A model generated the notes under the pieces. That model had not been told where the DNA came from. It did not search any database and saw only the letters and a list, made by a program, of their open reading frames with translations. A DNA stretch of 39,592 nt, from the sequence record OM630586.1, one strand, 5' to 3'. Positions 6,857 through 38,429 of the stretch are shown here, one piece after another. Source of the DNA: Escherichia phage vB_EcoP_LNA7. The translations under genes were made by a program, and so were the position numbers. Numbering within the stretch: position 1 is the stretch's first letter; every line of letters begins with the position of its first letter.

Positions 6857-9241
6857 ATGGCACTCATTAGCCAATCAATCAAGAACTTGAAGGGTGGTAT
6901 CAGTCAACAGCCTGACATCCTTCGTTATCCCGACCAAGGGTCACGCCAAGTTAACGGTTGGTCTTCGGAGACCGAGGGCCTCCAAAAGCGTCCACCTATG
7001 GTCTTCTTAAAGACACTTGGAGACAACGGTGCTTTAGGTCAATCTCCGTACATCCACCTGATTAACCGTGATGAGAACGAACAGTATTACGCTGTGTTCA
7101 CCGGAACAGGAATCCGTGTGTTTGACCTTGCTGGTAACGAGAAGCAAGTTAGGTATCCTAACGGTTCCAACTACATCCAGACCGCTCAGCCACGTAACGA
7201 CCTGCGAATGGTTACTGTAGCAGACTATACGTTCATCGTTAACCGTAACGTTGTTGTACAGAAGGACCCACTTTATATCAACTTACCGAATTATAACCCT
7301 AAGCAGGACGCTCTGATAAACGTTCGCGGTGGTCAGTATGGTCGTACCTTACAGATTATGATTAACGGTGGTTTACAAGCCTCCTATCAGATTCCTGATG
7401 GTTCACAGCCAGCACACGTTAATAACACTGACGCTCAGTGGTTAGCAGAAGAGTTGGCTCGCCAGTGTAGAGCAAATACTCCGGGATGGACCTTCAATGT
7501 TGGGCAGGGTTTTATCCACATCATAGCACCTGCGGGTCAACAGATTGATTCCCTGATGACGAAGGATGGCTACGCAGACCAGTTGATTAACCCTGTGACC
7601 CACTACGCTCAGTCGTTCTCTAAGTTGCCACCTAATGCTCCTAATGGCTACATGGTGAAAATCGTAGGGGACGCCTCTAAGTCTGCCGACCAGTATTACG
7701 TTCGGTATGACGCTGAGCGGAAAGTTTGGGCTGAGACTTTAGGTTGGAACACTGAGTACCAAGTTCTATGGAACACCATGCCACACGCTCTTGTGCGAGC
7801 CTCTGATGGTAATTTCGACTTCAAGTGGCTTGAGTGGTCTCCTAAGTCTTGTGGAGACGTTGATACTAACCCTTGGCCTTCTTTTGTTGGTTCAAGTATC
7901 AACGATGTGTTCTTCTTCCGTAACCGCTTAGGATTCCTTAGTGGGGAGAACATCATACTGAGTCGTACAGCCAAATACTTCAACTTCTACCCTGCGTCCA
8001 TTGCGAACCTTAGTGATGACGACCCTATAGATGTAGCTGTGAGTACCAACCGAATAGCAATCCTTAAGTACGCCGTTCCGTTCTCAGAAGAGTTACTCAT
8101 CTGGTCCGACGAGGCACAATTCGTACTTACAGCGTCCGGTACACTTACGTCAAAGTCAGTTGAGTTGAACCTAACGACTCAGTTTGATGTGCAGGACCAA
8201 GCGAGACCTTATGGGATTGGGCGTAACGTCTACTTTGCCAGTCCGAGGTCCAGCTACACGTCCATCCACAGATACTACGCCGTGCAGGATGTAAGTTCCG
8301 TTAAGAACGCTGAGGATATCACAGCCCACGTTCCTAACTACATCCCAAATGGTGTGTTTAGTATTTGTGGTAGTGGTACTGAAAACTTCTGTTCGGTATT
8401 ATCTAACGGGGACCCAAGTAAAATCTTCATATACAAATTCCTGTACCTGAACGAAGAGTTAAGACAACAGTCGTGGTCACATTGGGACTTTGGGGAAAAC
8501 GTACAGGTTCTAGCGTGTCAGAGTATCAGCTCAGATATGTATGTTATTCTTCGCAATGAGTTCAATACGTTCCTAGCTAGAATCTCTTTCACTAAGAACG
8601 CCATTGACTTACGAGGAGAACCTTACCGTGCCTTTATGGACATGAAGGTTCGCTACACGATTCCTAGTGGAACATACAACGATGATACATTCACTACCTC
8701 TATCCATATTCCAACCATTTATGGTGCAAACTTCGGGAGGGACAAAATCACTGTATTGGAGCCTGATGGTAAGATAACCGTATGTGAGCAACCAACTGGT
8801 GGGTGGAATAGTGACCCTTGGCTGAGACTAAACGGTAACTTAGAGGGACGTGAAGTGTTCATTGGGTTCAACATACACTTCGTCTATGAGTTCTCTAAGT
8901 TCCTCATTAAGCAAACTGCCGACGATGGGTCTACCTCCACGGAAGACATTGGGCGCTTACAGTTACGCCGAGCGTGGGTTAACTACGAGGATTCTGGTAC
9001 GTTCGACATTTACGTTGAGAACCAATCGTCCAACTGGAAGTACACAATGGCTGGTGCCCGATTAGGCTCTAACACTCTGAGGGCAGGTCGGCTGAACTTA
9101 GGGACCGGACAATACCGATTCCCTGTGGTGGGTAACGCTAAGTTCAATACCGTATACATCGTGTCCGATGCGACTACTCCGCTGAACATCATTGGGTGTG
9201 GCTGGGAAGGTAACTACTTACGGAGAAGTTCAGGTATTTAA
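6857..9241 (+). CDS. 12: gene 12 tail tubular protein B (nozzle)
   Basis: ORF track 794 aa, same as T7 gp12. Confidence 0.95.
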   Translation: MALISQSIKNLKGGISQQPDILRYPDQGSRQVNGWSSETEGLQKRPPMVFLKTLGDNGALGQSPYIHLINRDENEQYYAVFTGTGIRVFDLAGNEKQVRYPNGSNYIQTAQPRNDLRMVTVADYTFIVNRNVVVQKDPLYINLPNYNPKQDALINVRGGQYGRTLQIMINGGLQASYQIPDGSQPAHVNNTDAQWLAEELARQCRANTPGWTFNVGQGFIHIIAPAGQQIDSLMTKDGYADQLINPVTHYAQSFSKLPPNAPNGYMVKIVGDASKSADQYYVRYDAERKVWAETLGWNTEYQVLWNTMPHALVRASDGNFDFKWLEWSPKSCGDVDTNPWPSFVGSSINDVFFFRNRLGFLSGENIILSRTAKYFNFYPASIANLSDDDPIDVAVSTNRIAILKYAVPFSEELLIWSDEAQFVLTASGTLTSKSVELNLTTQFDVQDQARPYGIGRNVYFASPRSSYTSIHRYYAVQDVSSVKNAEDITAHVPNYIPNGVFSICGSGTENFCSVLSNGDPSKIFIYKFLYLNEELRQQSWSHWDFGENVQVLACQSISSDMYVILRNEFNTFLARISFTKNAIDLRGEPYRAFMDMKVRYTIPSGTYNDDTFTTSIHIPTIYGANFGRDKITVLEPDGKITVCEQPTGGWNSDPWLRLNGNLEGREVFIGFNIHFVYEFSKFLIKQTADDGSTSTEDIGRLQLRRAWVNYEDSGTFDIYVENQSSNWKYTMAGARLGSNTLRAGRLNLGTGQYRFPVVGNAKFNTVYIVSDATTPLNIIGCGWEGNYLRRSSGI

Positions 9242-10339: not shown

Positions 10340-12583
10340 ATGAGTAAAATTGAATCTGCCCTTCAAGCGGCACAACCGGGACTCTCTCGGTTACGTAGTG
10401 GCGCTGGTGGTATGGGCTATCGTGCAGCAACCACTCAGGCTGAGCAACCAAGGTCAAGCCTATTGGACACCATTGGTCGGTTCGCTAAGGCTGGTGCCGA
10501 TATGTATACCGCTAAGGAGCAACGAGCACGCGACCTAGCTGACGAACGCTCTAACGAGATTATCCGTAAGCTGACTCCTGAGCAGCGCCGAGAAGCTCTC
10601 AACAACGGGACCCTTCTGTATCAGGATGACCCATACGCTATGGAAGCACTGCGAGTCAAGACTGGTCGTAACGCTGCGTACCTTGTGGACGATGATGTTA
10701 TGCAGAAGGTCAAAGAGGGTGTCTTCCGTACCCGTGAAGAGATGGAAGAGTATCGCCATAGTCGTCTTCAAGAGGGCGCTAAGGCATACGCTGAGCAGTT
10801 TGGTATTGACCCTGAGGACGTTGATTATCAGCGCGGTTTCAACGGGGACATCACTGAGCGTAACATCTCACTGTATGGCGCACACGATAACTTCTTGAGC
10901 CAGCAAGCTCAGAAGGGTGCCATCATGAACAGTCGAGTGGAACTCAACGGTGTCCTTCAAGACCCTGATATGCTGCGCCGCCCAGACTCTGCTGACTTCT
11001 TTGAGAAGTACATCGACAATGGTCTGGTTACTGGGGCAATCCCCTCTGATGCTCAAGCCACTCAGCTTATAAGTCAAGCGTTCAGTGATGCTTCTAGCCG
11101 TGCTGGTGGTGCTGACTTCCTGATGAGAGTCGGTGACAAGAAGGTAACACTTAACGGGGCCACTACGACTTACCGAGAGTTAATGGGTGAAGAACAGTGG
11201 AATGCTCTCATGGTCACAGCACAACGTTCTCAGTTTGAGAATGACGCTAAGCTGAACGAGCAGTATCGCTTGAAGATTAACTCTGCGCTGAACCAAGAGG
11301 ACCCTCGTACTGCGTGGGAGATGCTTCAAGGTGTCAAGGCTGAACTCGATAAGATTCAACCTGATGAGCAGATGACACCGCAACGTGAGTGGCTAATCTC
11401 AGCACAGGAGCAAGTGCAGAATCAGATGAACGCATGGACGAAAGCACAGGCCAAGGCTCTGGATGACTCAATGAAGTCTATGAACAAACTTGACGTAATC
11501 GACAAGCAGTTCCAGAAGCGAATCAACGGTGAGTGGGTCTCAACGGACTTCAAGGACATGCCAACAAACGAGAACACTGGTGAGTTCAAACATAGCGATA
11601 TGGTTAACTACGCCAATAAGAAACTCGCTGAGATTGACAGTATGGATATTCCAGATGCTACCAAGGACGCCATGAAGTTGAAGTATCTTCAAGCGGACTC
11701 TAAGGACGGTGCATTCCGTACAGCAATCGGGACCATGGTAACAGACGCTGGTCAAGAGTGGTCTGCCGCTGTGATTAACGGTAAGTTACCGGACAATACC
11801 CCAGCTTTGGATGCTCTACGCAGAATCCGCAATGCTGACCCTCAGTTGATTGCCGCTCTGTATCCTGACCAAGCTGAGTTATTCCTGACGATGGACATGA
11901 TGGACAAGCAGGGCATTGACCCTCAGGTTATTCTTGACGCTGACCGACTGACTGTCAAGCGATCCAAAGAGCAACGCTTTGAGGACGATAAAGCATTTGA
12001 GTCTGCATTAAATGCGTCTAAGGCTCCTGAGATTGCCCGTATGCCAGCGTCACTGCGAGAATCTGCACGTAAGATTTATGACTCCGTTAAGTATCGCTCA
12101 GGGAACGAAAGCATGGCTATGGAGCAGATGACCAAGTTCCTTAAGGAATCTACCTACACGTTCACTGGTGACGATGTTGATGGTGATACCGTTGGTGTAA
12201 TTCCGAAGAACATGATGCAAGTCAACTCTGACCCGAAATCGTGGGAGCAAGGTCGTGATATTCTGGAGGAAGCACGTAAGGGAATCATTGCGAGCAACCC
12301 TTGGATAACCAACAAGCAACTGACCATGTATTCTCAAGGTGACTCCATTTACCTCATGGACACCACTGGTCAAGTCCGAGTCCGATACGACAAAGAGCTA
12401 CTCTCGAAGGTCTGGAGTGAGAACCAGAAGAAACTCGAAGAGAAAGCTCGTGAGAAGGCTCTGGCTGATGCGAACAAGCGAGCACCTATAGTTGCAGCAA
12501 CGAAAGCCCGTGAAGCTGCTGCTAAACGAGTAAGAGAGAAACGTAAACAGACTCCGAAGTTCATCTATGGACGTAAGGAGTAA
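10340..12583 (+). CDS. 15: gene 15 internal core protein
   Basis: ORF track 747 aa, same as T7 gp15. Confidence 0.95.
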   Translation: MSKIESALQAAQPGLSRLRSGAGGMGYRAATTQAEQPRSSLLDTIGRFAKAGADMYTAKEQRARDLADERSNEIIRKLTPEQRREALNNGTLLYQDDPYAMEALRVKTGRNAAYLVDDDVMQKVKEGVFRTREEMEEYRHSRLQEGAKAYAEQFGIDPEDVDYQRGFNGDITERNISLYGAHDNFLSQQAQKGAIMNSRVELNGVLQDPDMLRRPDSADFFEKYIDNGLVTGAIPSDAQATQLISQAFSDASSRAGGADFLMRVGDKKVTLNGATTTYRELMGEEQWNALMVTAQRSQFENDAKLNEQYRLKINSALNQEDPRTAWEMLQGVKAELDKIQPDEQMTPQREWLISAQEQVQNQMNAWTKAQAKALDDSMKSMNKLDVIDKQFQKRINGEWVSTDFKDMPTNENTGEFKHSDMVNYANKKLAEIDSMDIPDATKDAMKLKYLQADSKDGAFRTAIGTMVTDAGQEWSAAVINGKLPDNTPALDALRRIRNADPQLIAALYPDQAELFLTMDMMDKQGIDPQVILDADRLTVKRSKEQRFEDDKAFESALNASKAPEIARMPASLRESARKIYDSVKYRSGNESMAMEQMTKFLKESTYTFTGDDVDGDTVGVIPKNMMQVNSDPKSWEQGRDILEEARKGIIASNPWITNKQLTMYSQGDSIYLMDTTGQVRVRYDKELLSKVWSENQKKLEEKAREKALADANKRAPIVAATKAREAAAKRVREKRKQTPKFIYGRKE

Positions 12584-12609: not shown

Positions 12610-15600
12610 ATGGATAAGTACGATAAGAACGTACCAAGTGATTATGATGGTCTGTTCCAGAAGGCGGCTGATGCCACAGGGGTCTCTTATGACCTTTTAC
12701 GTAAAGTCGCTTGGACAGAATCACGATTTGTACCTACAGCTAAATCTAAGACTGGACCATTAGGTATGATGCAATTCACCAAGGCAACCGCTAAGGCCCT
12801 TGGTCTGCGAGTTACCGATGGTCCAGATGACGACCGACTGAACCCTGAGTTAGCCATCAATGCTGCCGCTAAGCACCTTGCAGGTCTGGTAGGTAAATTC
12901 GATGGTGATGAACTCAAAGCTGCCCTTGCGTACAACCAAGGCGAGGGACGCTTGGGTAATCCACAACTTGAGGCGTACTCTAAGGGAGACTTCGCATCCA
13001 TCTCTGAGGAGGGACGTAACTACATGCGTAACCTTCTGGATGTTGCTAAGTCGCCTATGGCTGGACAGTTGGAAACTTTTGGAGGTATCACCCCAAAGGG
13101 TAAAGGTATTCCGGCTGAGGTTGGACTAGCTGGTATTGGTCATAAGCAGAAGGTAACACAGGAACTTCCTGAGTCCACAAGTTTTGACGTTAAGGGTATC
13201 GAACAGGAGGCTCCGGCGAAACCATTCGCCAAGGACTTTTGGGAGACCCACGGAGAAACACTTGATGAGTACAACAATCGTTCAACCTTCTTCGGATTCA
13301 AAAATGCTGCCGAAGCTGAACTCTCCAACTCAGTCGCTGGGATGGCTTTCCGTGCTGGTCGTCTCGATAATGGTTTTGATGTGTTTAAAGACACCATTAC
13401 GCCGACTCGCTGGAACTCTCACATCTGGACTCCAGAGGAGTTAGAGAAGATTCGAACCGAGGTTAAGAACCCTGCGTATATCAATGTGGTAACTGGTGGT
13501 TCCCCTGAGAATCTTGACGACCTCATTAAGCTGGCTAACGAGAACTTTGAGAATGACTCCCGCGCTGCCGAAGCTGGCCTAGGTGCTAAACTGAGTGCTG
13601 GTATTATTGGCGCTGGTGTGGACCCTCTTAGCTATGTCCCCATGGTCGGTGTCACTGGTAAGGGCTTTAAGTTAATCAATAAGGCTCTTGTAGTTGGTGC
13701 CGAAAGTGCTGCACTGAACGTTGCATCCGAAGGTCTCCGTACCTCCGTAGCTGGTGGTGACGCAGATTATGCTGGTGCTGCTTTAGGTGGCTTTGTGTTT
13801 GGCGCTGGTATGTCTGCAATCAGCGATGCTGTAGCTGCTGGTCTGAAACGTAGCAAACCAGAAGCTGAGTTTGATAATGAGTTCATTGGTCCTATGATGC
13901 GGATGGAAGCCCGTGAGACAGCGCGGAACGCCAACTCTGCGGACCTCTCTCGGATGAACACTGAGAACATGAAGTTTGAAGGTGAACATAATGGTGTCCC
14001 TTATGAGGAATTACCAACCGAGAGAGGTGCCGTGGTGTTACACGATGGCTCCGTTCTAAGTGCAAGCAACCCAATCAACCCTAAGACTCTAAAAGAGTTC
14101 TCAGAGGTTGACCCTGAGAAGGCTGCGCGAGGAATCAAACTTGCTGGGTTCACCGAGATTGGCTTGAAGACCTTGGGGTCTGACGATGCTGACATTCGTA
14201 GAGTGGCTATTGACCTCGTTCGCTCTCCTACTGGTATGCAGTCTGGTGCCTCGGGTAAGTTCGGTGCAACAGCCTCTGACATCCATGAGAGGCTTCATGG
14301 TACTGACCAGCGTACTTACAATGACTTGTACAAAGCAATGTCTGACGCTATGAAAGACCCTGAGTTCTCTACTGGTGGAGCTAAGATGTCCCGTGAAGAA
14401 ACTCGCTACACTATCTACCGTAGAGCGGCACTAGCTATTGAGCGTCCAGAACTACAGAAGGCGCTCACTCCGTCTGAGAGAATCGTTATGGACATCATTA
14501 AGCGTCACTTTGACACCAAGCGTGAACTCATGGAGAATCCCGCAATCTTCGGTAATACGAAGGCTGTGAGTATCTTCCCTGAGAGTCGTCATAAGGGAAC
14601 CTACGTTCCTCACGTATACGACCGTCACGCCAAGGCGCTGATGATTCAACGCTACGGTGCTGAAGGCTTACAGGAAGGTATTGCTCGTTCGTGGATGAAC
14701 AGCTACGTCTCCAGACCTGAGGTCAAGGCCAGAGTCGATGAGATGCTTAAGGAAGTCCACGGGGTGAAGGAAGTAACACCTGAGATGGTAGAGAAGTACG
14801 CTATGGATAAGGCTTACGGTATCTCCCATTCAGACCAGTTCACCAACAGTTCCATAATCGAAGAGAACATTGAGGGCTTAGTAGGTATCGAGAACAACTC
14901 ATTCCTTGAGGCACGTAACTTGTTTGATTCGGACCTATCCATCACTATGCCAGACGGACAGCAATTCTCAGTGAACGACCTAAGGGACTTCGACATGTTC
15001 CGCATCATGCCAGCGTATGACCGCCGTATCAATGGTGACATCGCCATCATGGGGTCTACTGGTAAAACCACTAAGGAACTTAAGGAAGAGATTCTGGCTC
15101 TCAAAGCGAAAGCTGAGGGAGACGGTAAGAAGACTGGCGAGGTACATGCTCTTATGGATACCGTTAAGATTCTTACTGGTCGTGCTCGACGCAATCAGGA
15201 CACTGTGTGGGAAACCTCACTGCGTTCCATCAATGACCTAGGGTTCTTCGCTAAGAACGCCTATATGGGTGCTCAGAACATTACGGAGATTGCTGGGATG
15301 ATTGTAACTGGTAACGTGCGTGCTCTCAGTCACGGTATCCCAATTCTGCGTGATACCCTCTACAAGTCTAAACCAGTTTCCGCTAAGGAACTCAAGGAAC
15401 TCCATGCGTCTCTGTTCGGGAAGGAGGTTGACCAGTTGATTCGCCCTAAACGTGCTGACATTGTGCAGCGCCTAAGGGAAGCGACTGATACAGGACCTGC
15501 TGTGGCGAACATCGTAGGGACCTTGAAGTATTCAACACAGGAACTGGCTGCTCGCTCTCCGTGGACTAAGCTACTGAACGGAACCACTAACTACCTTCTG

Positions 15601-16638: not shown

Positions 16639-18438
16639 ATGGCTAACGTAATTAAAACCGTTTTGACTTACCAGTTGGATGGCTCCAATCGTGATTTTAA
16701 TATCCCGTTTGAGTATCTAGCCCGTAAGTTTGTAGTAGTAACCCTTATTGGCGTAGACCGAAAGGTCCTTACGATTAATACAGACTACCGTTTTGCTACT
16801 CGTACTACCATCTCACTGACTAAGGCTTGGGGTCCGTCAGATGGCTACATTACCATCGAGTTACGTCGAGTAACCTCCACGACCGACAGATTGGTTGACT
16901 TTACGGACGGCTCAATCCTCCGTGCGTATGACCTTAACGTTGCTCAGATTCAAACGATGCATGTAGCGGAGGAGGCGCGTGACCTGACTGCTGATACCAT
17001 CGGTGTCAATAATGATGGTCACTTGGATGCCCGTGGTCGTCGAATTGTGAACCTAGCGAACGCCGTGGATGACCGTGACGCTGTTCCGTTTGGTCAACTA
17101 AAGACCATGAACCAGAACTCGTGGCAGGCTCGTAATGAGGCCCTACAGTTCCGCAATGAGGCTGAGACTTTCAGGAATCAAGCGGAGGGCTTTAAGAATG
17201 AGTCCGGTACTAATGCTGCTAATACGAAGCAGTGGCGAGATGAGGCTAATGGGTTCCGAGATGAAGCCGAGCAATTCAAGAATACGGCTGGTCAATATGC
17301 TACATCTGCTGGGAACTCTGCTACTGCTGCGCATCAATCTGAGGTAAACGCTGAGAACTCTGCCACAGCATCCGCTAACTCTGCCGAATTGGCAGAACAG
17401 CAAGCAGACCGGGCTAAGAGCGAGGCGGATAAGCTGGCGAATAATAATGCGTTCGCGGGGACGCTATACTCCATAACCCCAGATAGTCCTGCTGTAATAG
17501 GCTCAGGTACTGTTACATTCAAGTCGTCCTATGCGGTGAATGCTCCAATACTTAGGGCGACAAAAGGTGGCATGTCTCTGGGGAGCGATAGAGTTGATGG
17601 AGATGGTACCTCCACGTTCATCAACTTCTACAAAAACGCTGTAAACGCTGTAGGTAGTATTCAAGTAGGAGATGACGGCACATTCACCATAAATTCCAAC
17701 GGCTGGACGAAACTCGCTGGTAGCGTCACACAGGTGAACCAGCTGCGTTCTGGATACTCAGAGGTTACAGTAAACAACAACAATGTAGCCGTCCACGCCA
17801 GAGCAACAAATCTCAGTGGGGGTGAGGGTCAGACAAACGCAGTATATAACAGATACACGATTGTAGGCCGAGGGTCTAGCGTCTCAGGGGCAGAGGGAGC
17901 GCTAATGGATTTTGGCATACGAGAGGTAGTAGGTAACAGGTATGAGGCATATATGTGGGTAGCAGGCTTTGGTGGATCAGCCGTGTGGACATTTGGTAAT
18001 AATGGCACGTTCAACAGCCCAGCCGATATAGTAGCCAACGGGTCGTTAGTCGCTAATCACAGTCTACGTATTGGGACATGTACCCACGCTGCCGATGGCA
18101 ACATTTTTGGCTCTATCTGGGGTAACGATTGGTTAACCAATTACCTAAACAGGTCGTTTAAGAGGAAAACCAAAGGATGGACTTCGGTGTGGAATGGGAG
18201 AATAGGTGCCGGAGGTGTAGCATGGCTGACCCAAGATGTACGTTTTAGAACCATTTGGATACGCACAGCGGCCCAGCCTAATACGTGGACGCCAATTCAA
18301 CTTGGCCCGGATGGGACGTATATGGCGCGACCTGACCCTGGCTGGATTAGGTTCACACTTGCTAACAATGGTACATCCATAACCAACAACCAAGATGATA
18401 ACTCTGTTCCTATCGAGATTGTCGTAGAGAATGAGTAA
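16639..18438 (+). CDS. 17: gene 17 tail fibre; T7-like N-terminus, non-T7 C-terminal receptor-binding region
   Basis: ORF track 599 aa; first ~260 aa match T7 gp17 (MANVIKTVLTYQLDGSNRDF...), remainder differs and the protein is 46 aa longer than T7 (553 aa). Confidence 0.9.
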   Translation: MANVIKTVLTYQLDGSNRDFNIPFEYLARKFVVVTLIGVDRKVLTINTDYRFATRTTISLTKAWGPSDGYITIELRRVTSTTDRLVDFTDGSILRAYDLNVAQIQTMHVAEEARDLTADTIGVNNDGHLDARGRRIVNLANAVDDRDAVPFGQLKTMNQNSWQARNEALQFRNEAETFRNQAEGFKNESGTNAANTKQWRDEANGFRDEAEQFKNTAGQYATSAGNSATAAHQSEVNAENSATASANSAELAEQQADRAKSEADKLANNNAFAGTLYSITPDSPAVIGSGTVTFKSSYAVNAPILRATKGGMSLGSDRVDGDGTSTFINFYKNAVNAVGSIQVGDDGTFTINSNGWTKLAGSVTQVNQLRSGYSEVTVNNNNVAVHARATNLSGGEGQTNAVYNRYTIVGRGSSVSGAEGALMDFGIREVVGNRYEAYMWVAGFGGSAVWTFGNNGTFNSPADIVANGSLVANHSLRIGTCTHAADGNIFGSIWGNDWLTNYLNRSFKRKTKGWTSVWNGRIGAGGVAWLTQDVRFRTIWIRTAAQPNTWTPIQLGPDGTYMARPDPGWIRFTLANNGTSITNNQDDNSVPIEIVVENE

Positions 18439-21290: not shown

Positions 21291-21731
21291 ATGATAAGTA
21301 AGAAGAAGTATGTAGTTGATAAGGAGACTGGCTGCTGGAACTTTAAGGGATGTAAGACGAAGACTGGCTATGGTCGTCTCCGTGTAAATGGAGTCCATTG
21401 GATGGCCCACAGGTATTCCCTGAGTTGTCATCTAGGTAGACCGATAGCTGATGGAATGGTTGTGATGCACCTATGTGATAACCCATCATGTGTTAACCCT
21501 GAGCATCTTAAGGAAGGGACTCAGAAGGAGAACATAGAGGATTGTATATCAAAAGGAAGAGCAACAAAGGCTACTGGTAAACGTATGTCGAGAAGGGACC
21601 CTAGCGAGGAACGTAAGGCTATGGTCATTCGTCGCTACCATAAAGGATGGACAGCAACGTCCATAGCAAGATACCATAAGCTCTCTGTAGCGTGGGTAAA
21701 GAGGGTCATCGAGGCTTACCTAAGTGATTGA
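21291..21731 (+). CDS. Free-standing HNH homing endonuclease between genes 19 and 19.5 (no T7 counterpart at this position as far as I recall)
   Basis: ORF track 146 aa; HLCDNPSCVNPEHL HNH motif, paralogous to gp7.7; C-terminal HTH-like SIARYHKLSVAWVKRVI; SD aaggaggt. Confidence 0.85.
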   Translation: MISKKKYVVDKETGCWNFKGCKTKTGYGRLRVNGVHWMAHRYSLSCHLGRPIADGMVVMHLCDNPSCVNPEHLKEGTQKENIEDCISKGRATKATGKRMSRRDPSEERKAMVIRRYHKGWTATSIARYHKLSVAWVKRVIEAYLSD

Positions 21732-21782: not shown

Positions 21783-21805
21783 TAATTCGACTCACTATAG
21801 GGAGA
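21783..21805 (+). promoter_or_regulatory. Phage RNAP promoter phiOR
   Basis: taattcgactcactatagggaga, one mismatch to consensus. Confidence 0.85.
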
Positions 21806-28209: not shown

Positions 28210-28467
28210 ATGGGTCGCTTATACAGTGGGAACTTGAATGACTTCAAGGCTGCTTGCAACAGGCTCTACCAGTTGGACTTTGCTGTTATAGCTGTTGAGC
28301 AGGAAGGTTCACCAAACATAAAGGCAACCATGTACCTTCGGATTGAAGATCGTACTGGGCGAGTAGTGGTTCAGGAAGAGATTCACCACTGCGACGAAGA
28401 CGTTCTGTACAATATGTGCACCGCTTGGCTGAACCGCATGTACGACCAGTTGAAGGACTGGAAGTAA
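28210..28467 (+). CDS. 1.2: gene 1.2 inhibitor of host dGTP triphosphohydrolase (Dgt); central region divergent from T7
   Basis: ORF 28171..28467 trimmed to ATG 28210 (MGRLYSGNL...); 85 aa with conserved ends (...DEDVLYNMCTAWLNRMYDQLKDWK). Confidence 0.85.
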   Translation: MGRLYSGNLNDFKAACNRLYQLDFAVIAVEQEGSPNIKATMYLRIEDRTGRVVVQEEIHHCDEDVLYNMCTAWLNRMYDQLKDWK

Positions 28468-30860: not shown

Positions 30861-31559
30861 ATGGCTAAGAAGATTTTCACCTCTGCGCTGGGTACCGCTG
30901 AACCTTACGCTTACATCGCCAAGCCGGACTACGGTAACGAAGAGCGTGGCTTTGGGAACCCTCGTGGTGTATACAAAGTTGACCTGACTATTCCCAACAA
31001 AGACCCGCGCTGCCAGCGTATGGTCGATGAAATCGTGAAGTGTCACGAAGAGGCTTATGCTGCTGCCGTTGAGGAATACGAAGCGAATCCACCTGCTGTA
31101 GCTCGTGGTAAGAAACCGCTGAAACCGTATGAAGGCGACATGCCGTTCTTCGATAATGGTGACGGCACGACTACCTTTAAGTTTAAATCTTACGCATCAT
31201 ATCAGGATAAGAAGACCAAAGAGACCAAGCACATCAATCTGGTTGTGGTTGACTCCAAAGGTAAGAAGATGGAAGACGTTCCGATTATCGGTGGTGGCTC
31301 TAAGCTGAAAGTCAAGTACTCTCTGGTTCCGTACAAGTGGAACACCGCTGTCGGTGCGAGCGTTAAGTTGCAACTGGAATCCGTAATGCTGGTCGAACTG
31401 GCTACCTTTGGTGGTGGTGAAGATGATTGGGCTGACGAAGTTGAAGAGAACGGCTATGTTGCCTCTGGTTCTGCCAAAGCTAGCAAACCACGCGACGAAG
31501 AAAGCTGGGACGAAGACGACGAAGGCTCTTACGAAGAAGACTCAGACGGAGATTTCTAA
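30861..31559 (+). CDS. 2.5: gene 2.5 single-stranded DNA-binding protein
   Basis: ORF track 232 aa, acidic C-terminal tail ending ...DGDF. Confidence 0.95.
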   Translation: MAKKIFTSALGTAEPYAYIAKPDYGNEERGFGNPRGVYKVDLTIPNKDPRCQRMVDEIVKCHEEAYAAAVEEYEANPPAVARGKKPLKPYEGDMPFFDNGDGTTTFKFKSYASYQDKKTKETKHINLVVVDSKGKKMEDVPIIGGGSKLKVKYSLVPYKWNTAVGASVKLQLESVMLVELATFGGGEDDWADEVEENGYVASGSAKASKPRDEESWDEDDEGSYEEDSDGDF

Positions 31560-32015
31560 GTGGCTGGCGCATACGCTGCGCGTGGTATCCGAAAGGTCGG
31601 GACATTCCGTTCCGGCCTAGAAGATAAGGTCTCTAAGCAGCTAGAGAGTAAAGGTATACAGTTTGACTACGAGCAGTGGAAGATTCCCTACGTAGTCCCT
31701 GCGAGTAATCACACGTATTGCCCAGATTTTCTACTGCCCAATGGTATCTTCATCGAGACCAAGGGGCTATGGGAAAGTGACGACCGCAAGAAGCATCTCC
31801 TGATTCGCGAGCAGATGCCAGAGCTAGATATACGACTTGTGTTCTCAAGCTCCCGCACAAAACTCTACAAAGGGTCTCCAACGTCCTATGCAGAATTTTG
31901 TGAAAAACACGGTATCCTGTTTGCTGACAAATTAATTCCTGTAGAATGGCTCAAAGAACCCAAAAAGGAGGTGCCATTTGACAAGCTGAAACAATCGAAA
32001 GGAGGAAAGAAATAA
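31560..32015 (+). CDS. 3: gene 3 endonuclease I (Holliday junction resolvase), GTG start immediately after the gene 2.5 stop
   Basis: ORF track 151 codons, (M)AGAYAARGIRKVGTFRSGLEDKVSKQLESKGI..., matches T7 gp3; ggag 10 nt upstream of GTG. Confidence 0.85.
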   Translation: MAGAYAARGIRKVGTFRSGLEDKVSKQLESKGIQFDYEQWKIPYVVPASNHTYCPDFLLPNGIFIETKGLWESDDRKKHLLIREQMPELDIRLVFSSSRTKLYKGSPTSYAEFCEKHGILFADKLIPVEWLKEPKKEVPFDKLKQSKGGKK

Positions 32016-32471: not shown

Positions 32472-32494
32472 TAATTGAACTCACTAAAGGGAGA
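32472..32494 (+). promoter_or_regulatory. Phage RNAP class II promoter phi3.8, followed by the gggagaccacaacggtttccc hairpin
   Basis: taattgaactcactaaagggaga. Confidence 0.85.
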
Positions 32495-32526
32495 CCACAA
32501 CGGTTTCCCTTTGTTCGCATTGTTGA

Positions 32527-34245
<1,719 letters not shown>

Positions 34246-34263
34246 AAGAATACTTGATGATTT

Positions 34264-34286
34264 TAATTAGACTCACTAAAGGAGCT
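34264..34286 (+). promoter_or_regulatory. Phage RNAP class II promoter phi4.3 (here directly upstream of an HNH gene)
   Basis: taattagactcactaaaggagct. Confidence 0.8.
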
Positions 34287-34292
34287 AACCAC

Positions 34293-34718
34293 ATGGACAC
34301 TAACTTAGCGAGATTTGAAAGATTCTTGAAGATTGATGGTGACTGCTGGCTGTTCACTGGTGGAAGGGCACACTCCTATGGAGTCTTCTGGATGAACGGT
34401 AAGAATCACAGGGCACATAGGGCCGCCTTCGAACTTTATAACGGGAGGAAACCTAATGGTGTTATATTACACTCTTGTGATAATCCTTTGTGCTGCAATC
34501 CCTCTCATCTATCTGAGGGAACTCAGCTTGATAATATGGTGGACATGGTTAGAAAGGGACGCTCACTGAGAGGCACGAAGAATCCAATGTGCAAGTTTAC
34601 TGATGTGGATGTTAAGTTCATCCGAGAGTCTACTATGAAGGTTAAGGATTTAGCTGCTTTATTCGGAGTAACACGCCAAACAATAACCAAATGGAGGAGA
34701 CACACATGTTCAAACTGA
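34293..34718 (+). CDS. Free-standing HNH homing endonuclease between promoter phi4.3 and gene 4.3
   Basis: ORF 34254..34718 trimmed to ATG 34293 (MDTNLARFERFLKIDGDCWLF...); LHSCDNPLCCNPSHL HNH motif; C-terminal HTH-like LAALFGVTRQTITKWRRH; 141 aa. Confidence 0.85.
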   Translation: MDTNLARFERFLKIDGDCWLFTGGRAHSYGVFWMNGKNHRAHRAAFELYNGRKPNGVILHSCDNPLCCNPSHLSEGTQLDNMVDMVRKGRSLRGTKNPMCKFTDVDVKFIRESTMKVKDLAALFGVTRQTITKWRRHTCSN

Positions 34719-34918
34719 TTAAGAAATTGGGCCAACTGCTGGTTCGTATGTACAACATTGAAGCTAAACGCCTGAACGATGAGGCTCGTAAAGAGGCCAC
34801 ACAGTCACGCGCTCTGGCGATTCGCTCAAACGAACTGGCTGACAGCGCATCCAACAAGGTTACAGAAGCTGCCCGTGTAGCAAACCAAGCTCAACAGCTT
34901 TCCAAATTCTTTGAGTAA
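34706..34918 (+). CDS. 4.3: gene 4.3 protein
   Basis: ORF 34691..34918 trimmed to ATG 34706 (MFKLIKKLGQLLVRMYN...), 70 aa as in T7; overlaps the HNH ORF end by 13 nt. Confidence 0.85.
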   Translation: MFKLIKKLGQLLVRMYNIEAKRLNDEARKEATQSRALAIRSNELADSASNKVTEAARVANQAQQLSKFFE

Positions 34919-35712: not shown

Positions 35713-37671
35713 ATGATCGTTTCTGACATCGAAGCTAACGCCCTCTTAGAGAGCGTCACTAAGTTCCACTGCGGGGTTATCTACGACTACTCCACCGCTG
35801 AGTACGTAAGCTACCGTCCGAGTGACTTCGGTGCGTATCTGGATGCGCTGGAAGCCGAGGTTGCACGAGGCGGTCTTATTGTGTTCCACAACGGTCACAA
35901 GTATGACGTTCCTGCATTGACCAAACTGGCAAAGTTACAATTGAACCGAGAGTTCCACCTTCCTCGTGAGAACTGTATTGACACCCTTGTACTGTCACGA
36001 TTGATTCACTCTAACCTGAAAGACACCGATATGGGTCTTCTGCGTTCCGGTAAGCTGCCTGGGAAACGCTTTGGGTCTCACGCTTTGGAGGCGTGGGGTT
36101 ATCGCTTAGGCGAGATGAAGGGTGAATACAAGGATGACTTTAAGCGTATGCTTGAAGAGCAAGGTGAAGAGTACGTTGACGGAATGGAGTGGTGGAACTT
36201 CAACGAAGAGATGATGGCCTATAACGTTCAGGACGTTGTGGTGACTAAGGCTCTACTTGAGAAGTTAATCTCTGACAAACACTACTTCCCCGACCAAGGT
36301 ATCGACTGGACTGACGTAGGTAACACATTCTGGCGTGAGTCTGTAGAGGCTGTCGAGCTAGAGCATAAAGCTGCGTGGCTGCTCGCTAAGCAGGAACGTA
36401 ACGGCTTTCCATTCAATACCAAAGCTATCGAAGACCTGTACGTAGAGTTGGCTGCTCGTCGCTCTGAGTTGCTCATGAAGTTGACCGAAACGTTTGGCTC
36501 GTGGTATCAACCTAAAGGTGGCACCGAAATGTTCTGCCATCCGAGGACTGGTAAACCACTGCCTAAATACCCTCGCATTAAGACACCTAAAGTTGGTGGC
36601 ATCTTTAAGAAGCCTAAGAACAAGGCACAGCGAGAAGGACGTGAGCCTTGCGAACTGGATACCCGAGAGTACGTTGCTGGTGCTCCTTACACCCCAGTTG
36701 AGCACGTGGTGTTTAACCCATCGTCTCGTGACCACATTCAGAAGAAACTCCAAGAGGCTGGATGGGTCCCTACCAAGTACACCGATAAGGGTGCTCCTGT
36801 GGTGGACGATGAGGTACTCGAAGGAGTACGTGTAGATGACCCTGAGAAGCAAGCTGCTATCGACCTCATTAAAGAGTACCTGATGATTCAGAAGCGAATC
36901 GGACAGTCTGCTGAGGGAGACAAGGCGTGGCTGCGTTACGTTCAAGAGGACGGTAAGATTCATGGTTCTGTTAACCCTAATGGAGCAGTTACAGGTCGTG
37001 CGACCCATGCGTTCCCCAACCTTGCGCAAATTCCGGGTGTACGTTCTCCTTATGGAGAGCAGTGTCGCGCTGCTTTTGGCGCTGAGCACCATTTGGATGG
37101 GATAACCGGTAAGCCTTGGGTTCAGGCTGGTATCGACGCATCCGGCCTTGAGTTGCGCTGCTTGGCCCACTTCATGGCTCGCTTTGATAACGGTGAGTAT
37201 GCTCACGAGATTCTTAATGGCGACATCCACACTAAGAACCAGATGGCTGCCGAACTGCCTACCCGTGATAACGCTAAGACGTTCATCTATGGGTTCCTTT
37301 ATGGTGCTGGTGATGAGAAGATTGGACAGATTGTTGGTGCTGGTAAAGAGCGCGGTAAGGAACTCAAGAAGAAATTCCTTGAGAACACCCCAGCGATTGC
37401 AGCACTCCGTGAGTCTATCCAACAGACCCTTGTCGAGTCCTCTCAGTGGGTAGCTGGTGAGCAGCAAGTAAAGTGGAAACGCCGCTGGATTAAAGGTCTG
37501 GATGGTCGTAAGGTACACGTTCGTAGTCCTCACGCTGCTTTGAATACCCTACTGCAATCTGCTGGTGCTCTCATCTGCAAACTGTGGATTATCAAGACCG
37601 AAGAGATGCTCGTAGAGAAAGGCTTGAAGCATGGCTGGGATGGGGACTTTGCGTACATGGCGTGGGTGCAT
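35713..37671 (+). CDS. 5: gene 5 DNA polymerase, exon 1 (653 codons)
   Basis: ORF track 35713..37722; homology to T7 gp5 stops after ...DFAYMAWVH at 37671, and the remaining 17 codons of the ORF are intron sequence. Confidence 0.9.
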
Positions 37672-38273
37672 AAACAAATTTCATTGTGCACATTAAATCT
37701 GGTGAACTCGGTGAAACCCTAATGGGGCAATACCGAGCCAAGCCATAGGGAGGATATATGAGAGGCAAGAAGTTAATTCTTGAGGCCACTGAGACTGGCT
37801 GTATCATCCCTACGTCACACAAACTTAATGCCGATGGTTATTTCAGAAAGAAAACCAATGGCGTCTTGGAGATGTATCACAGAACGGTGTGGAAGGAGCA
37901 TAATGGAGAAATACCAGAAGGCTTCGAGATAGACCATAAGTGTCGCAATAGGGCTTGCTGTAACATAGAGCATTTACAGATGCTTGAAGGTACAGCCCAC
38001 ACTGTTAAGACCAATCGTGAACGCTACGCAGACAGAAAGGAAACAGCTAGGGAATACTGGCTGGAGACTGGATGTACCGGCCTAGCACTAGGTGAGAAGT
38101 TTGGTGTGTCGTTCTCTTCCGCTTGTAAGTGGATTAGAGAATGGAAGGCGTAGAGACTATCCGAAAGGAGTAGGGCCGAGGGTGAGACTCCCTCGTAACC
38201 CGAAGCGCCAGACAGTCAACTCAAAGGCTGATGATATAGTCCGACACTCCTAGTAATAGGAGAATACAGAAAG
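37672..38273 (+). mobile_element. Group I self-splicing intron (602 nt) in DNA polymerase gene 5, carrying an HNH homing endonuclease ORF
   Basis: Exon 1 ends in U; intron ends in G; internal guide GUGCAC (37686..37691) pairs with exon end GUGCAU including the U.G wobble; R-like AGAGACUA (38152..38159) and S-like GAUGAUAUAGUCC (38230..38242) can form P7; joining the exons restores a 704-codon polymerase. Confidence 0.85.
37758..38153 (+). CDS. Intron-encoded HNH homing endonuclease
   Basis: ORF track 131 aa; EIDHKCRNRACCNIEHL HNH motif; own SD gggagg; lies entirely within the intron. Confidence 0.85.
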   Translation: MRGKKLILEATETGCIIPTSHKLNADGYFRKKTNGVLEMYHRTVWKEHNGEIPEGFEIDHKCRNRACCNIEHLQMLEGTAHTVKTNRERYADRKETAREYWLETGCTGLALGEKFGVSFSSACKWIREWKA

Positions 38274-38429
38274 GATGAAATTCAAGTAGGTTGCCGCACC
38301 GAAGAGATTGCTCAGGTGGTCATTGAGACCGCACAAGAAGCAATGCGCTGGGTTGGAGACCACTGGAACTTCAGGTGTCTTCTGGATACCGAAGGTAAGA
38401 TGGGTCCTAACTGGGCCGTATGTCACTGA
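38274..38429 (+). CDS. 5: gene 5 DNA polymerase, exon 2 (51 codons plus stop)
   Basis: Encodes DEIQVGCRTEEIAQVVIETAQEAMRWVGDHWNFRCLLDTEGKMGPNWAVCH, the canonical gp5 C-terminus, in frame with exon 1 once 37672..38273 is removed. Confidence 0.85.
   Translation, partial: DEIQVGCRTEEIAQVVIETAQEAMRWVGDHWNFRCLLDTEGKMGPNWAVCH

Follow-up and report, generated by a model that had tools for sequence, protein, structure and literature searches.

Two structurally characterised His-Me finger homing endonucleases, I-HmuI and I-PpoI, are both intron-encoded, whereas the HNH gene that we describe here, at the gene 4.3 site of a T7-like phage, is free-standing. T7 itself has three genes of this kind, 2.8, 3.8, and 7.7, which a 2025 preprint treated as homing endonucleases and found to be helpful against GAPS4 (10.1101/2025.09.07.674715). 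The proteins gp2.8 and gp7.7 (HNH_3 / zinc-loop His-Me endonuclease-like) share family and domain order with the 4.3-site HNH protein; gene 2.8 occupies the slot between genes 2.5 and 3 and gene 7.7 the slot between 7.3 and 8, and neither is the specific sister of the gene studied here. T7 gp3.8 belongs to another HNH subfamily, with no real similarity to the 4.3-site protein (E 0.08) and no C-terminal helix-turn-helix (HTH) match. The region between genes 4 and 4.3 has also been mentioned in the genome paper of phage Kvp1, as one of those dissimilar from phage Berlin (PMC2579914). We searched the literature for an account of the 4.3-site insertion itself and found none.

The window that we analyzed is the whole of record OM630586.1 (39,592 nucleotides, Escherichia phage vB_EcoP_LNA7). 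By tblastn of T7 proteins it is an entire T7-like genome, circularly permuted so that its first base lies in the middle of gene 6, and its proteins are mostly 90-99% identical to their T7 counterparts; for the phage RNA polymerase the figure is 99%. The same search found no counterpart of T7 genes 1.4, 2.8, 3.8, and 5.3 in the 39,592-nt genome. The tail fibre encoded by gene 17 (16639-18435) is 51% identical to T7 gp17 and gp1.2 (28210-28464) is 60% identical, a divergence which, judged from the sequences, suggests that the host receptor is not that of T7 and that the dGTPase-inhibitor/PifA-sensitivity allele differs as well. Bas102, a close relative, has been described as O16 antigen-dependent (PMC11990801). 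The features around genes 4 and 4.3 that are given below with their coordinates all lie on the plus strand.

An insertion in the leader of the phi4.3 transcript

Gene 4, the primase/helicase gene, was located at 32542..34245 by its T7 protein match. Behind it lies a phi4.3-type T7 RNA polymerase promoter (TAATTAGACTCACTAAAGGAGCT, 34264..34286, covering -17 to +6), aligned to the annotated T7 phi4.3, and a core scan of the genome found 15 T7-type promoter cores against 0.1 expected by chance. From the alignment to T7 phi4.3, in which +1 is position 13341, the inferred start point is G34281. A 141-aa HNH (His-Me finger) endonuclease ORF (34293..34718) begins with an ATG at 34293, at +13 or 12 nt past the start point, and ends with TGA at 34716-34718; the ATG of gene 4.3 in T7 is at +12. 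The earlier note on this DNA had put the ORF 7 nt past the promoter, and the distance is indeed 6-8 nt, depending on where the promoter end is set.

We compared the junctions by anchored side-by-side alignment of filled and empty sites. The empty sites of T7, JeanTinguely, 64795_ec1, and SYGE1 read ...CACTAAAGGAG ACACACC ATG, with the ATG being that of gene 4.3, and the site here reads ...CACTAAAGGAG / CTAACCAC ATG ... AAATGGAGGAG / ACACAC ATG, with slashes marking the junctions. In T7, as the earlier note had stated, phi4.3 stands directly before gene 4.3 with nothing between them (CACTAAAGGAG-ACACACC-ATG). Relative to the empty-site phages there is a 415-bp insertion (34285..34699), which interrupts the 11-nt leader of the phi4.3 transcript and whose ends are ambiguous by a 5-nt repeat, AGGAG (34280-34284 and 34695-34699).

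The placement of the insertion redistributes the ribosome-binding sites. GGAG at the extreme 5' end of the phi4.3 transcript (+1 to +4, 34281..34284) is the Shine-Dalgarno sequence (SD) of gene 4.3 in T7 and that of the HNH ORF here, with an 8-nt spacer to the ATG. Gene 4.3 (34706..34918; 70 aa, 97% identity to T7 gp4.3, phrog_1950) has GGAGGAG as its SD at 34693..34699, inside the HNH coding sequence as the earlier note had proposed, where it is formed by the C-terminal Trp-Arg-Arg codons (TGG AGG AGA). A WRR or WRK C-terminus is conserved in the other phages that carry the insertion and in two more distant ones, Kvp1 and pO103, the Kvp1 protein ending in ...NWRRKQ.

The insert supplies no stop codon for the HNH ORF, which continues into gene 4.3 in another frame. 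The resulting overlap of 13 nt (34706-34718), the length of 141 aa, and the HNH character had been described before, and the coordinates and the Pfam HNH_3 match agree with this; all that the earlier note said about the sequence itself held on checking. Because the ORF reads into gene 4.3 for its stop, its tail and the length of the overlap vary between carriers: Bas102 shares the 13-nt overlap, AH67C600_Q5 and JB01 have one of 17 nt, and N30 has one of 8 nt, and two different relative reading frames are used among them. The promoter varies as well: AH67C600_Q5 and JB01 have AC at -13/-12, where OM630586.1, Bas102, and N30 have TA.

The spacer from the gene 4 stop to the phi4.3 promoter is also variable. 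JB01 (compared stretch 946-1031) has ~47 extra nt there, T7 (compared stretch 943-1022) has a different extra stretch of ~39 nt that is the end of ORF 4.2, and Vi06-like Salmonella phages (compared stretches ~1030-1073) have a diverged promoter-like sequence, TTAACACAACTCCACCAAAGGAG, in the same spacer.

We propose that the 415 bp entered the 11-nt phi4.3 leader long ago, between the GGAG SD and the spacer that precedes the ATG of 4.3. The endonuclease would have taken over the promoter-borne SD, gene 4.3 would have been given a new one from the Trp-Arg-Arg codons of the endonuclease, and the endonuclease ORF would have come to stop out of frame just within 4.3. If so, this is a case, precise to the base, of a free-standing endonuclease gene that settled in an 11-nt mRNA leader with its neighbour unharmed, taking the promoter-borne ribosome-binding site and giving a replacement from its own last codons. 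For engineers of T7-like phages, the 4.3 site would be a tolerated insertion point.

The HNH protein and its family

The 141-aa ORF, which includes LHSCDNPLCCNPSHL, matched Pfam HNH_3 (PF13392) over residues 40-83 with 46.6 bits (E 2.7e-12), above the curated cut-off of 24.8 bits, and it matched PHROG endonuclease families with a best E of 2e-28. Residues 40-83 (34410..34541) make up the nuclease core, as marked by the Pfam match, by invariant columns, and by matches to the I-PpoI and I-HmuI fold. Across the four HNH paralogues of the genome, H60, C62, C67, N69, and H72 are invariant and C68 and N81 are not; N81 (in QLDN) is present in the 4.3-site protein and in non-intron family members, with Gly in its place in intron-encoded paralogues. 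We equated H60 with H34 of T7 gp3.8 by comparing the DH and LH motifs by eye rather than by a computed alignment; H34A has been used as the gp3.8 catalytic mutant (10.1101/2025.09.07.674715).

A C-terminal HTH DNA-binding module at residues 109-138 (34617..34706) is indicated by matches to several Pfam HTH families, all below their cut-offs, by three modelled helices, and by HTH/homeodomain structural matches. The AlphaFold model, which was built on a shallow 4-sequence alignment and has a mean pLDDT of 75, begins with an N-terminal part rich in beta strands, followed by a beta-beta-alpha core, a disordered linker, and the C-terminal three-helix module, and the protein has the beta-beta-alpha-metal fold. 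I-PpoI and I-HmuI took the top Foldseek ranks, not significant on their own (E of at least 0.06). In sequence, the 4.3-site HNH protein matches no PDB chain significantly; a PDB sequence search gave nothing meaningful, with a best E of 0.014 to an unrelated Spire repeat.

The gene is under purifying selection. Its dN/dS is 0.07-0.15 between carriers and 0.12 against Kvp1, which argues that the HNH protein has been maintained. It might be supposed that the ORF is a decaying remnant without protein function, whose only relevant effect is on the expression of gene 4.3, and the tail beyond WRR, which varies across carriers and is read from recipient sequence, would fit such a remnant. However, the ORF is intact in every carrier, its dN/dS is 0.07-0.15 among them, H60 and N69 are invariant in the paralogues, and N81 is present, so that we give decay hardly any credence.

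The earlier note had suggested that a mobile endonuclease was relocated between intergenic sites, since the motif is closest to gp2.8 and gene 2.8 is missing from its usual slot. The statement about the motif holds for its 15 residues, 14 of which match gp2.8 compared with 9 of 15 for gp7.7, and the motif LHSCDNPLCCNP(S/E)HL of the 4.3-site protein is near-identical to that of gp2.8. It does not hold at full length, where identity is 41.9% to gp2.8 (87.8 bits) and 44.5% to gp7.7 (91.7 bits). Alignment with these two T7 proteins had itself been named as a comparison that could overturn the idea, and similarity to gp2.8 proved no higher than to gp7.7.

We built a neighbour-joining tree of 25 family members, with support computed as bipartition frequencies. 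The clade at the gene 4 / 4.3 boundary, consisting of the carriers and Kvp1/pO103, had 100/100 bootstrap support. Its sisterhood to T7 gp2.8 was supported by 8/100, and its membership of a loose 2.8-like supergroup by 55/100. Genes of the gp2.8/gp7.7-like family occupy the slots 1.2|1.3, 2.5|3, 4|4.3, 7.3|8, 15|16, and 19|19.5 in T7-like phages, and nearly every relative outside the 4|4.3 slot runs into the start of the gene that follows it. A role for the HNH protein in association with terminase was considered and set aside, because the gene is located among the class II DNA-metabolism genes and relatives are found in many unrelated slots.

Could gene 2.8 nevertheless have left the 2.5-3 slot and moved to the 4.3 site in the lineage of OM630586.1? 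Gene 2.8 is, as was claimed, missing from its T7 position, with gene 2.5 ending at 31556 and gene 3 starting at ~31566, and it is missing from Bas102, N30, and JB01 too; the 14/15 motif match and the 55/100 supergroup likewise speak for a move. Against it stand the full-length identities, with gp7.7 ahead of gp2.8, and the 8/100 sister support. Moreover, AH67C600_Q5 holds both genes, gene 2.8 at 8665-9084 and the 4.3-site gene at 11759-12187, and the nearest relatives outside the carriers, at 72.6% identity, are Berlinvirus genes that already occupy the gene 4 / 4.3 boundary. Treated as a test of orthology to T7 gene 2.8, these comparisons show that gp2.8 is not the closest paralogue and that the two genes are not distributed in an either/or manner, and we consider the relocation very improbable.

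The gene 3 haplotype (31566-32012) tracks the presence of gene 2.8: gene 3 is 84-85% identical to that of the 2.8-less phages Bas102, N30, and JB01 and 74% identical to that of the 2.8-bearing phages T7 and AH67C600_Q5. This pattern may be a linkage or co-conversion signal of the 2.8 endonuclease.

Other endonuclease genes were seen in the genome. Gene 5 (35713-38429) is split, with exon 1 ending at ~37686 and exon 2 resuming at ~38274, and 37662-38263 matched the full model of the Rfam group I intron RF00028 (44.8 bits, E 4.4e-10). The gathering score of RF00028 is 50 and the intron was seen only in a local E-value search; at the gathering threshold, Rfam gave nothing in the 39,592-nt genome. 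The intron, which we take to resemble the DNA-polymerase introns of other T7-like phages, has an ORF of 131 aa (37758-38153; HNH_3, 3.5e-16), and the element is also found in Bas102, where the CDS is annotated as joined, and in AH67C600_Q5. A fourth HNH-type ORF, of 146 aa (21291-21731; HNH_3 and HTH_23), lies between gene 19 (terminase large subunit, end ~21250) and a phiOR-type promoter at 21783-21805, before gene 19.5. The 19|19.5 slot is empty in T7, and the orthologues in N30, JB01, and AH67C600_Q5 are annotated only as 'hypothetical protein'. Bas102 has an extra HNH gene (10822-11292) that overlaps the end of the ligase gene and is absent from OM630586.1, so near-identical phages differ in their endonuclease complement.

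Distribution, age, and spread

Megablast of the region found the insert in 7 of 226 related phage records, the rest being empty at the identical junction. The 7 records represent 5 distinct phages, Bas102, JB01, AH67C600_Q5, N30, and C5, of which Bas102 has 95.5% nucleotide identity, and a scan of IMG/VR gave three close matches and no new close carrier. The orthologues are 87-96.5% identical in amino acid sequence, have the same insertion point past phi4.3, and overlap the start of gene 4.3. Four of the five phages have the gene annotated as an endonuclease or HNH endonuclease: Bas102 (Bas102_0026, 'endonuclease', XPK42551.1), N30 ('putative HNH endonuclease', AYD80141.1), C5 ('putative HNH endonuclease'), and AH67C600_Q5 ('HNH endonuclease motif protein', UAW06981.1); the JB01 orthologue is QOV06343.1. 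The insertion reported by the earlier note is therefore real with respect to T7 and most relatives, but the site was already filled in Bas102, N30, C5, AH67C600_Q5, and JB01, an outcome that the note itself had named as speaking against its reading.

The next relatives by tblastn, at 72.6% amino acid identity, are in the Berlinviruses Kvp1 (a Kluyvera phage) and pO103 (an E. coli phage). Kvp1 'gene 2.8' (ACJ14561.1) and its unannotated equivalent in pO103 have the same two-domain build as the 4.3-site HNH protein and lie in the same neighbourhood, between gene 4 and 4.3/4.7. They differ in that the gene is upstream of the promoter, with a start that overlaps the 3' end of gene 4 and a TAA stop inside the promoter (AATAAGACTCACTAA), so the junctions are unlike those of OM630586.1. 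The gene 4 / 4.3 boundary would thus be a place where such genes land repeatedly, in two genera of phages.

Synonymous divergence of the insert was 0.4-0.5 among carriers and 1.8 against Kvp1; the carrier values indicate that the insertion is old and no recent hop. We consider it probable that the gene is a free-standing HNH homing-type endonuclease, with a nuclease core and a C-terminal HTH, of a lineage belonging to the gene 4 / 4.3 boundary. Several features are those of a homing gene. It is a stand-alone intergenic ORF between the promoter and gene 4.3, outside any intron or intein, and its distribution is patchy, with presence/absence polymorphism at a precise site between close relatives and carriers that form no genome-wide clade. 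The C-terminal HTH at residues 109-138, with its sub-threshold Pfam hits, provides a separate DNA-binding module.

Homing is, from the sequences compared, the most likely mechanism, and we regard the gene as a putative homing gene. The HTH module would recognise, in HNH-less relatives, a site close to the boundary of genes 4 and 4.3, and the His-Me finger would nick or cut that site. In mixed infection, we infer, HNH-less relatives are cut or nicked near the locus in this way, and recombinational repair off the carrier genome copies the gene in.

We also looked at the flanks of the insertion. The final ~100 nt of gene 4 hold 16 carrier-diagnostic columns, compared with 1 in the 600 nt downstream. 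A co-conversion tract in the gene 4 tail was considered for these columns and downgraded, as the same carrier-type tail is also found in empty-site Vi06-like Salmonella phages. Since the insert is about as diverged as its flanks (88-90% versus 85-95%), long vertical residence with recombination fits as well as active homing. Genome-wide, OM630586.1 is as near to T7 as to the carriers; the exceptions are gene 3 and the 3' end of gene 4, where the carriers are closer, which fits mosaic spread of a local segment.

Strong long-term purifying selection (dN/dS ~0.1, over a dS of up to 0.5 in Teseptimavirus and 1.8 against Kvp1) would also be found if this were an accessory gene kept by phage-level selection, either blunting a break-sensing host defence or cutting competing phages. 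According to the 2025 preprint, T7 without 2.8, 3.8, and 7.7 loses to the wild type under GAPS4, and catalytically dead gp3.8 still attenuates GAPS4 (10.1101/2025.09.07.674715). However, the preprint tested gp3.8 and the triple deletion, which concern lineages other than the 4.3-site HNH, and the gene is kept by only 5 distinct phages of more than 200 sequenced relatives, with none added by IMG/VR, a rarity that is unexpected for a broadly useful gene. By analogy a phage-beneficial role is possible; that such selection is what keeps the gene we hold to be unlikely. It is compatible with homing, and the one does not exclude the other.

A more speculative reading, which we regard as quite unlikely, is that the HNH lineage entered the gene 4 / 4.3 boundary twice, downstream of the promoter in Teseptimavirus and upstream of it in Berlinvirus, and that carriers are kept by a phage-beneficial activity. 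Were it true, a double entry would mean that what the enzyme recognises is itself the conserved segment, either the promoter-leader or the gene 4 tail, and carriers would be kept by interference with empty-site competitors or by attenuation of a break-sensing defence, not by pure selfishness. The Teseptimavirus/Berlinvirus pair would then be a natural system in which an endonuclease has been re-seated around a regulatory element with the expression of the neighbours unbroken.

Expression of the locus and comparison with T7 gene 3.8

Upstream of phi4.3, the promoter scan found a promoter of the phi3.8 type (32472..32494) with no gene 3.8 behind it and one of the phi4c type (33631..33653) within gene 4. 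We found no terminator-like site on the plus strand between 32400 and 35800, so read-through transcripts that start at either of these promoters should carry the HNH ORF and gene 4.3 as well. Class II transcripts are read through in T7. We infer that the HNH ORF behaves as a class II gene, with transcription starting both at phi4.3 and at the upstream promoters. The claim that the endonuclease had captured a promoter survives to the extent that it is the first cistron from the phi4.3-type promoter, but the arrangement is less special than it was made out to be, given the read-through and the layout of T7 gene 3.8.

The earlier note also presumed that translation of gene 4.3 is coupled to that of the HNH ORF. 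Such coupling may occur, but nothing demands it: over 131 nt spanning the start of 4.3, predicted folding is no stronger than in shuffled controls (z +1.45), and the overlap varies between carriers. Because the region is unstructured, the SD strong and at a suitable distance, and the geometry of the overlap not conserved, gene 4.3 likely initiates independently on its own GGAGGAG, with coupling optional. On the account that we propose, gene 4.3 would probably start on this SD of its own, and termination-reinitiation would be an optional extra.

The phi3.8-type promoter and leader (32472-32541) are kept here although gene 3.8 is missing, leaving an empty slot. The slots around gene 4 are accordingly reciprocal, with 3.8 filled and 4.3 empty in T7, and 3.8 empty and 4.3 filled in OM630586.1.

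Beyond annotation the locus adds little and raises no new question, as T7 and its relatives have already made known the gene family, its scattered occurrence, and the promoter-HNH-overlap layout. The 4.3-site HNH gene is an ordinary free-standing homing-type endonuclease gene, already deposited and annotated in relatives. T7 gene 3.8 (HNH_3, E 3e-15) flanks gene 4 too, but on the opposite side. Like the gene at the 4.3 site, it follows a class II promoter, phi3.8, and has its own SD; the SD of gene 4A, AGGAGG, lies within it, and its last 26 nt overlap the start of 4A. As far as sequence layout goes, then, the succession of promoter, HNH gene, and overlap at the 4.3 site is not special, and is already present in T7 gene 3.8.
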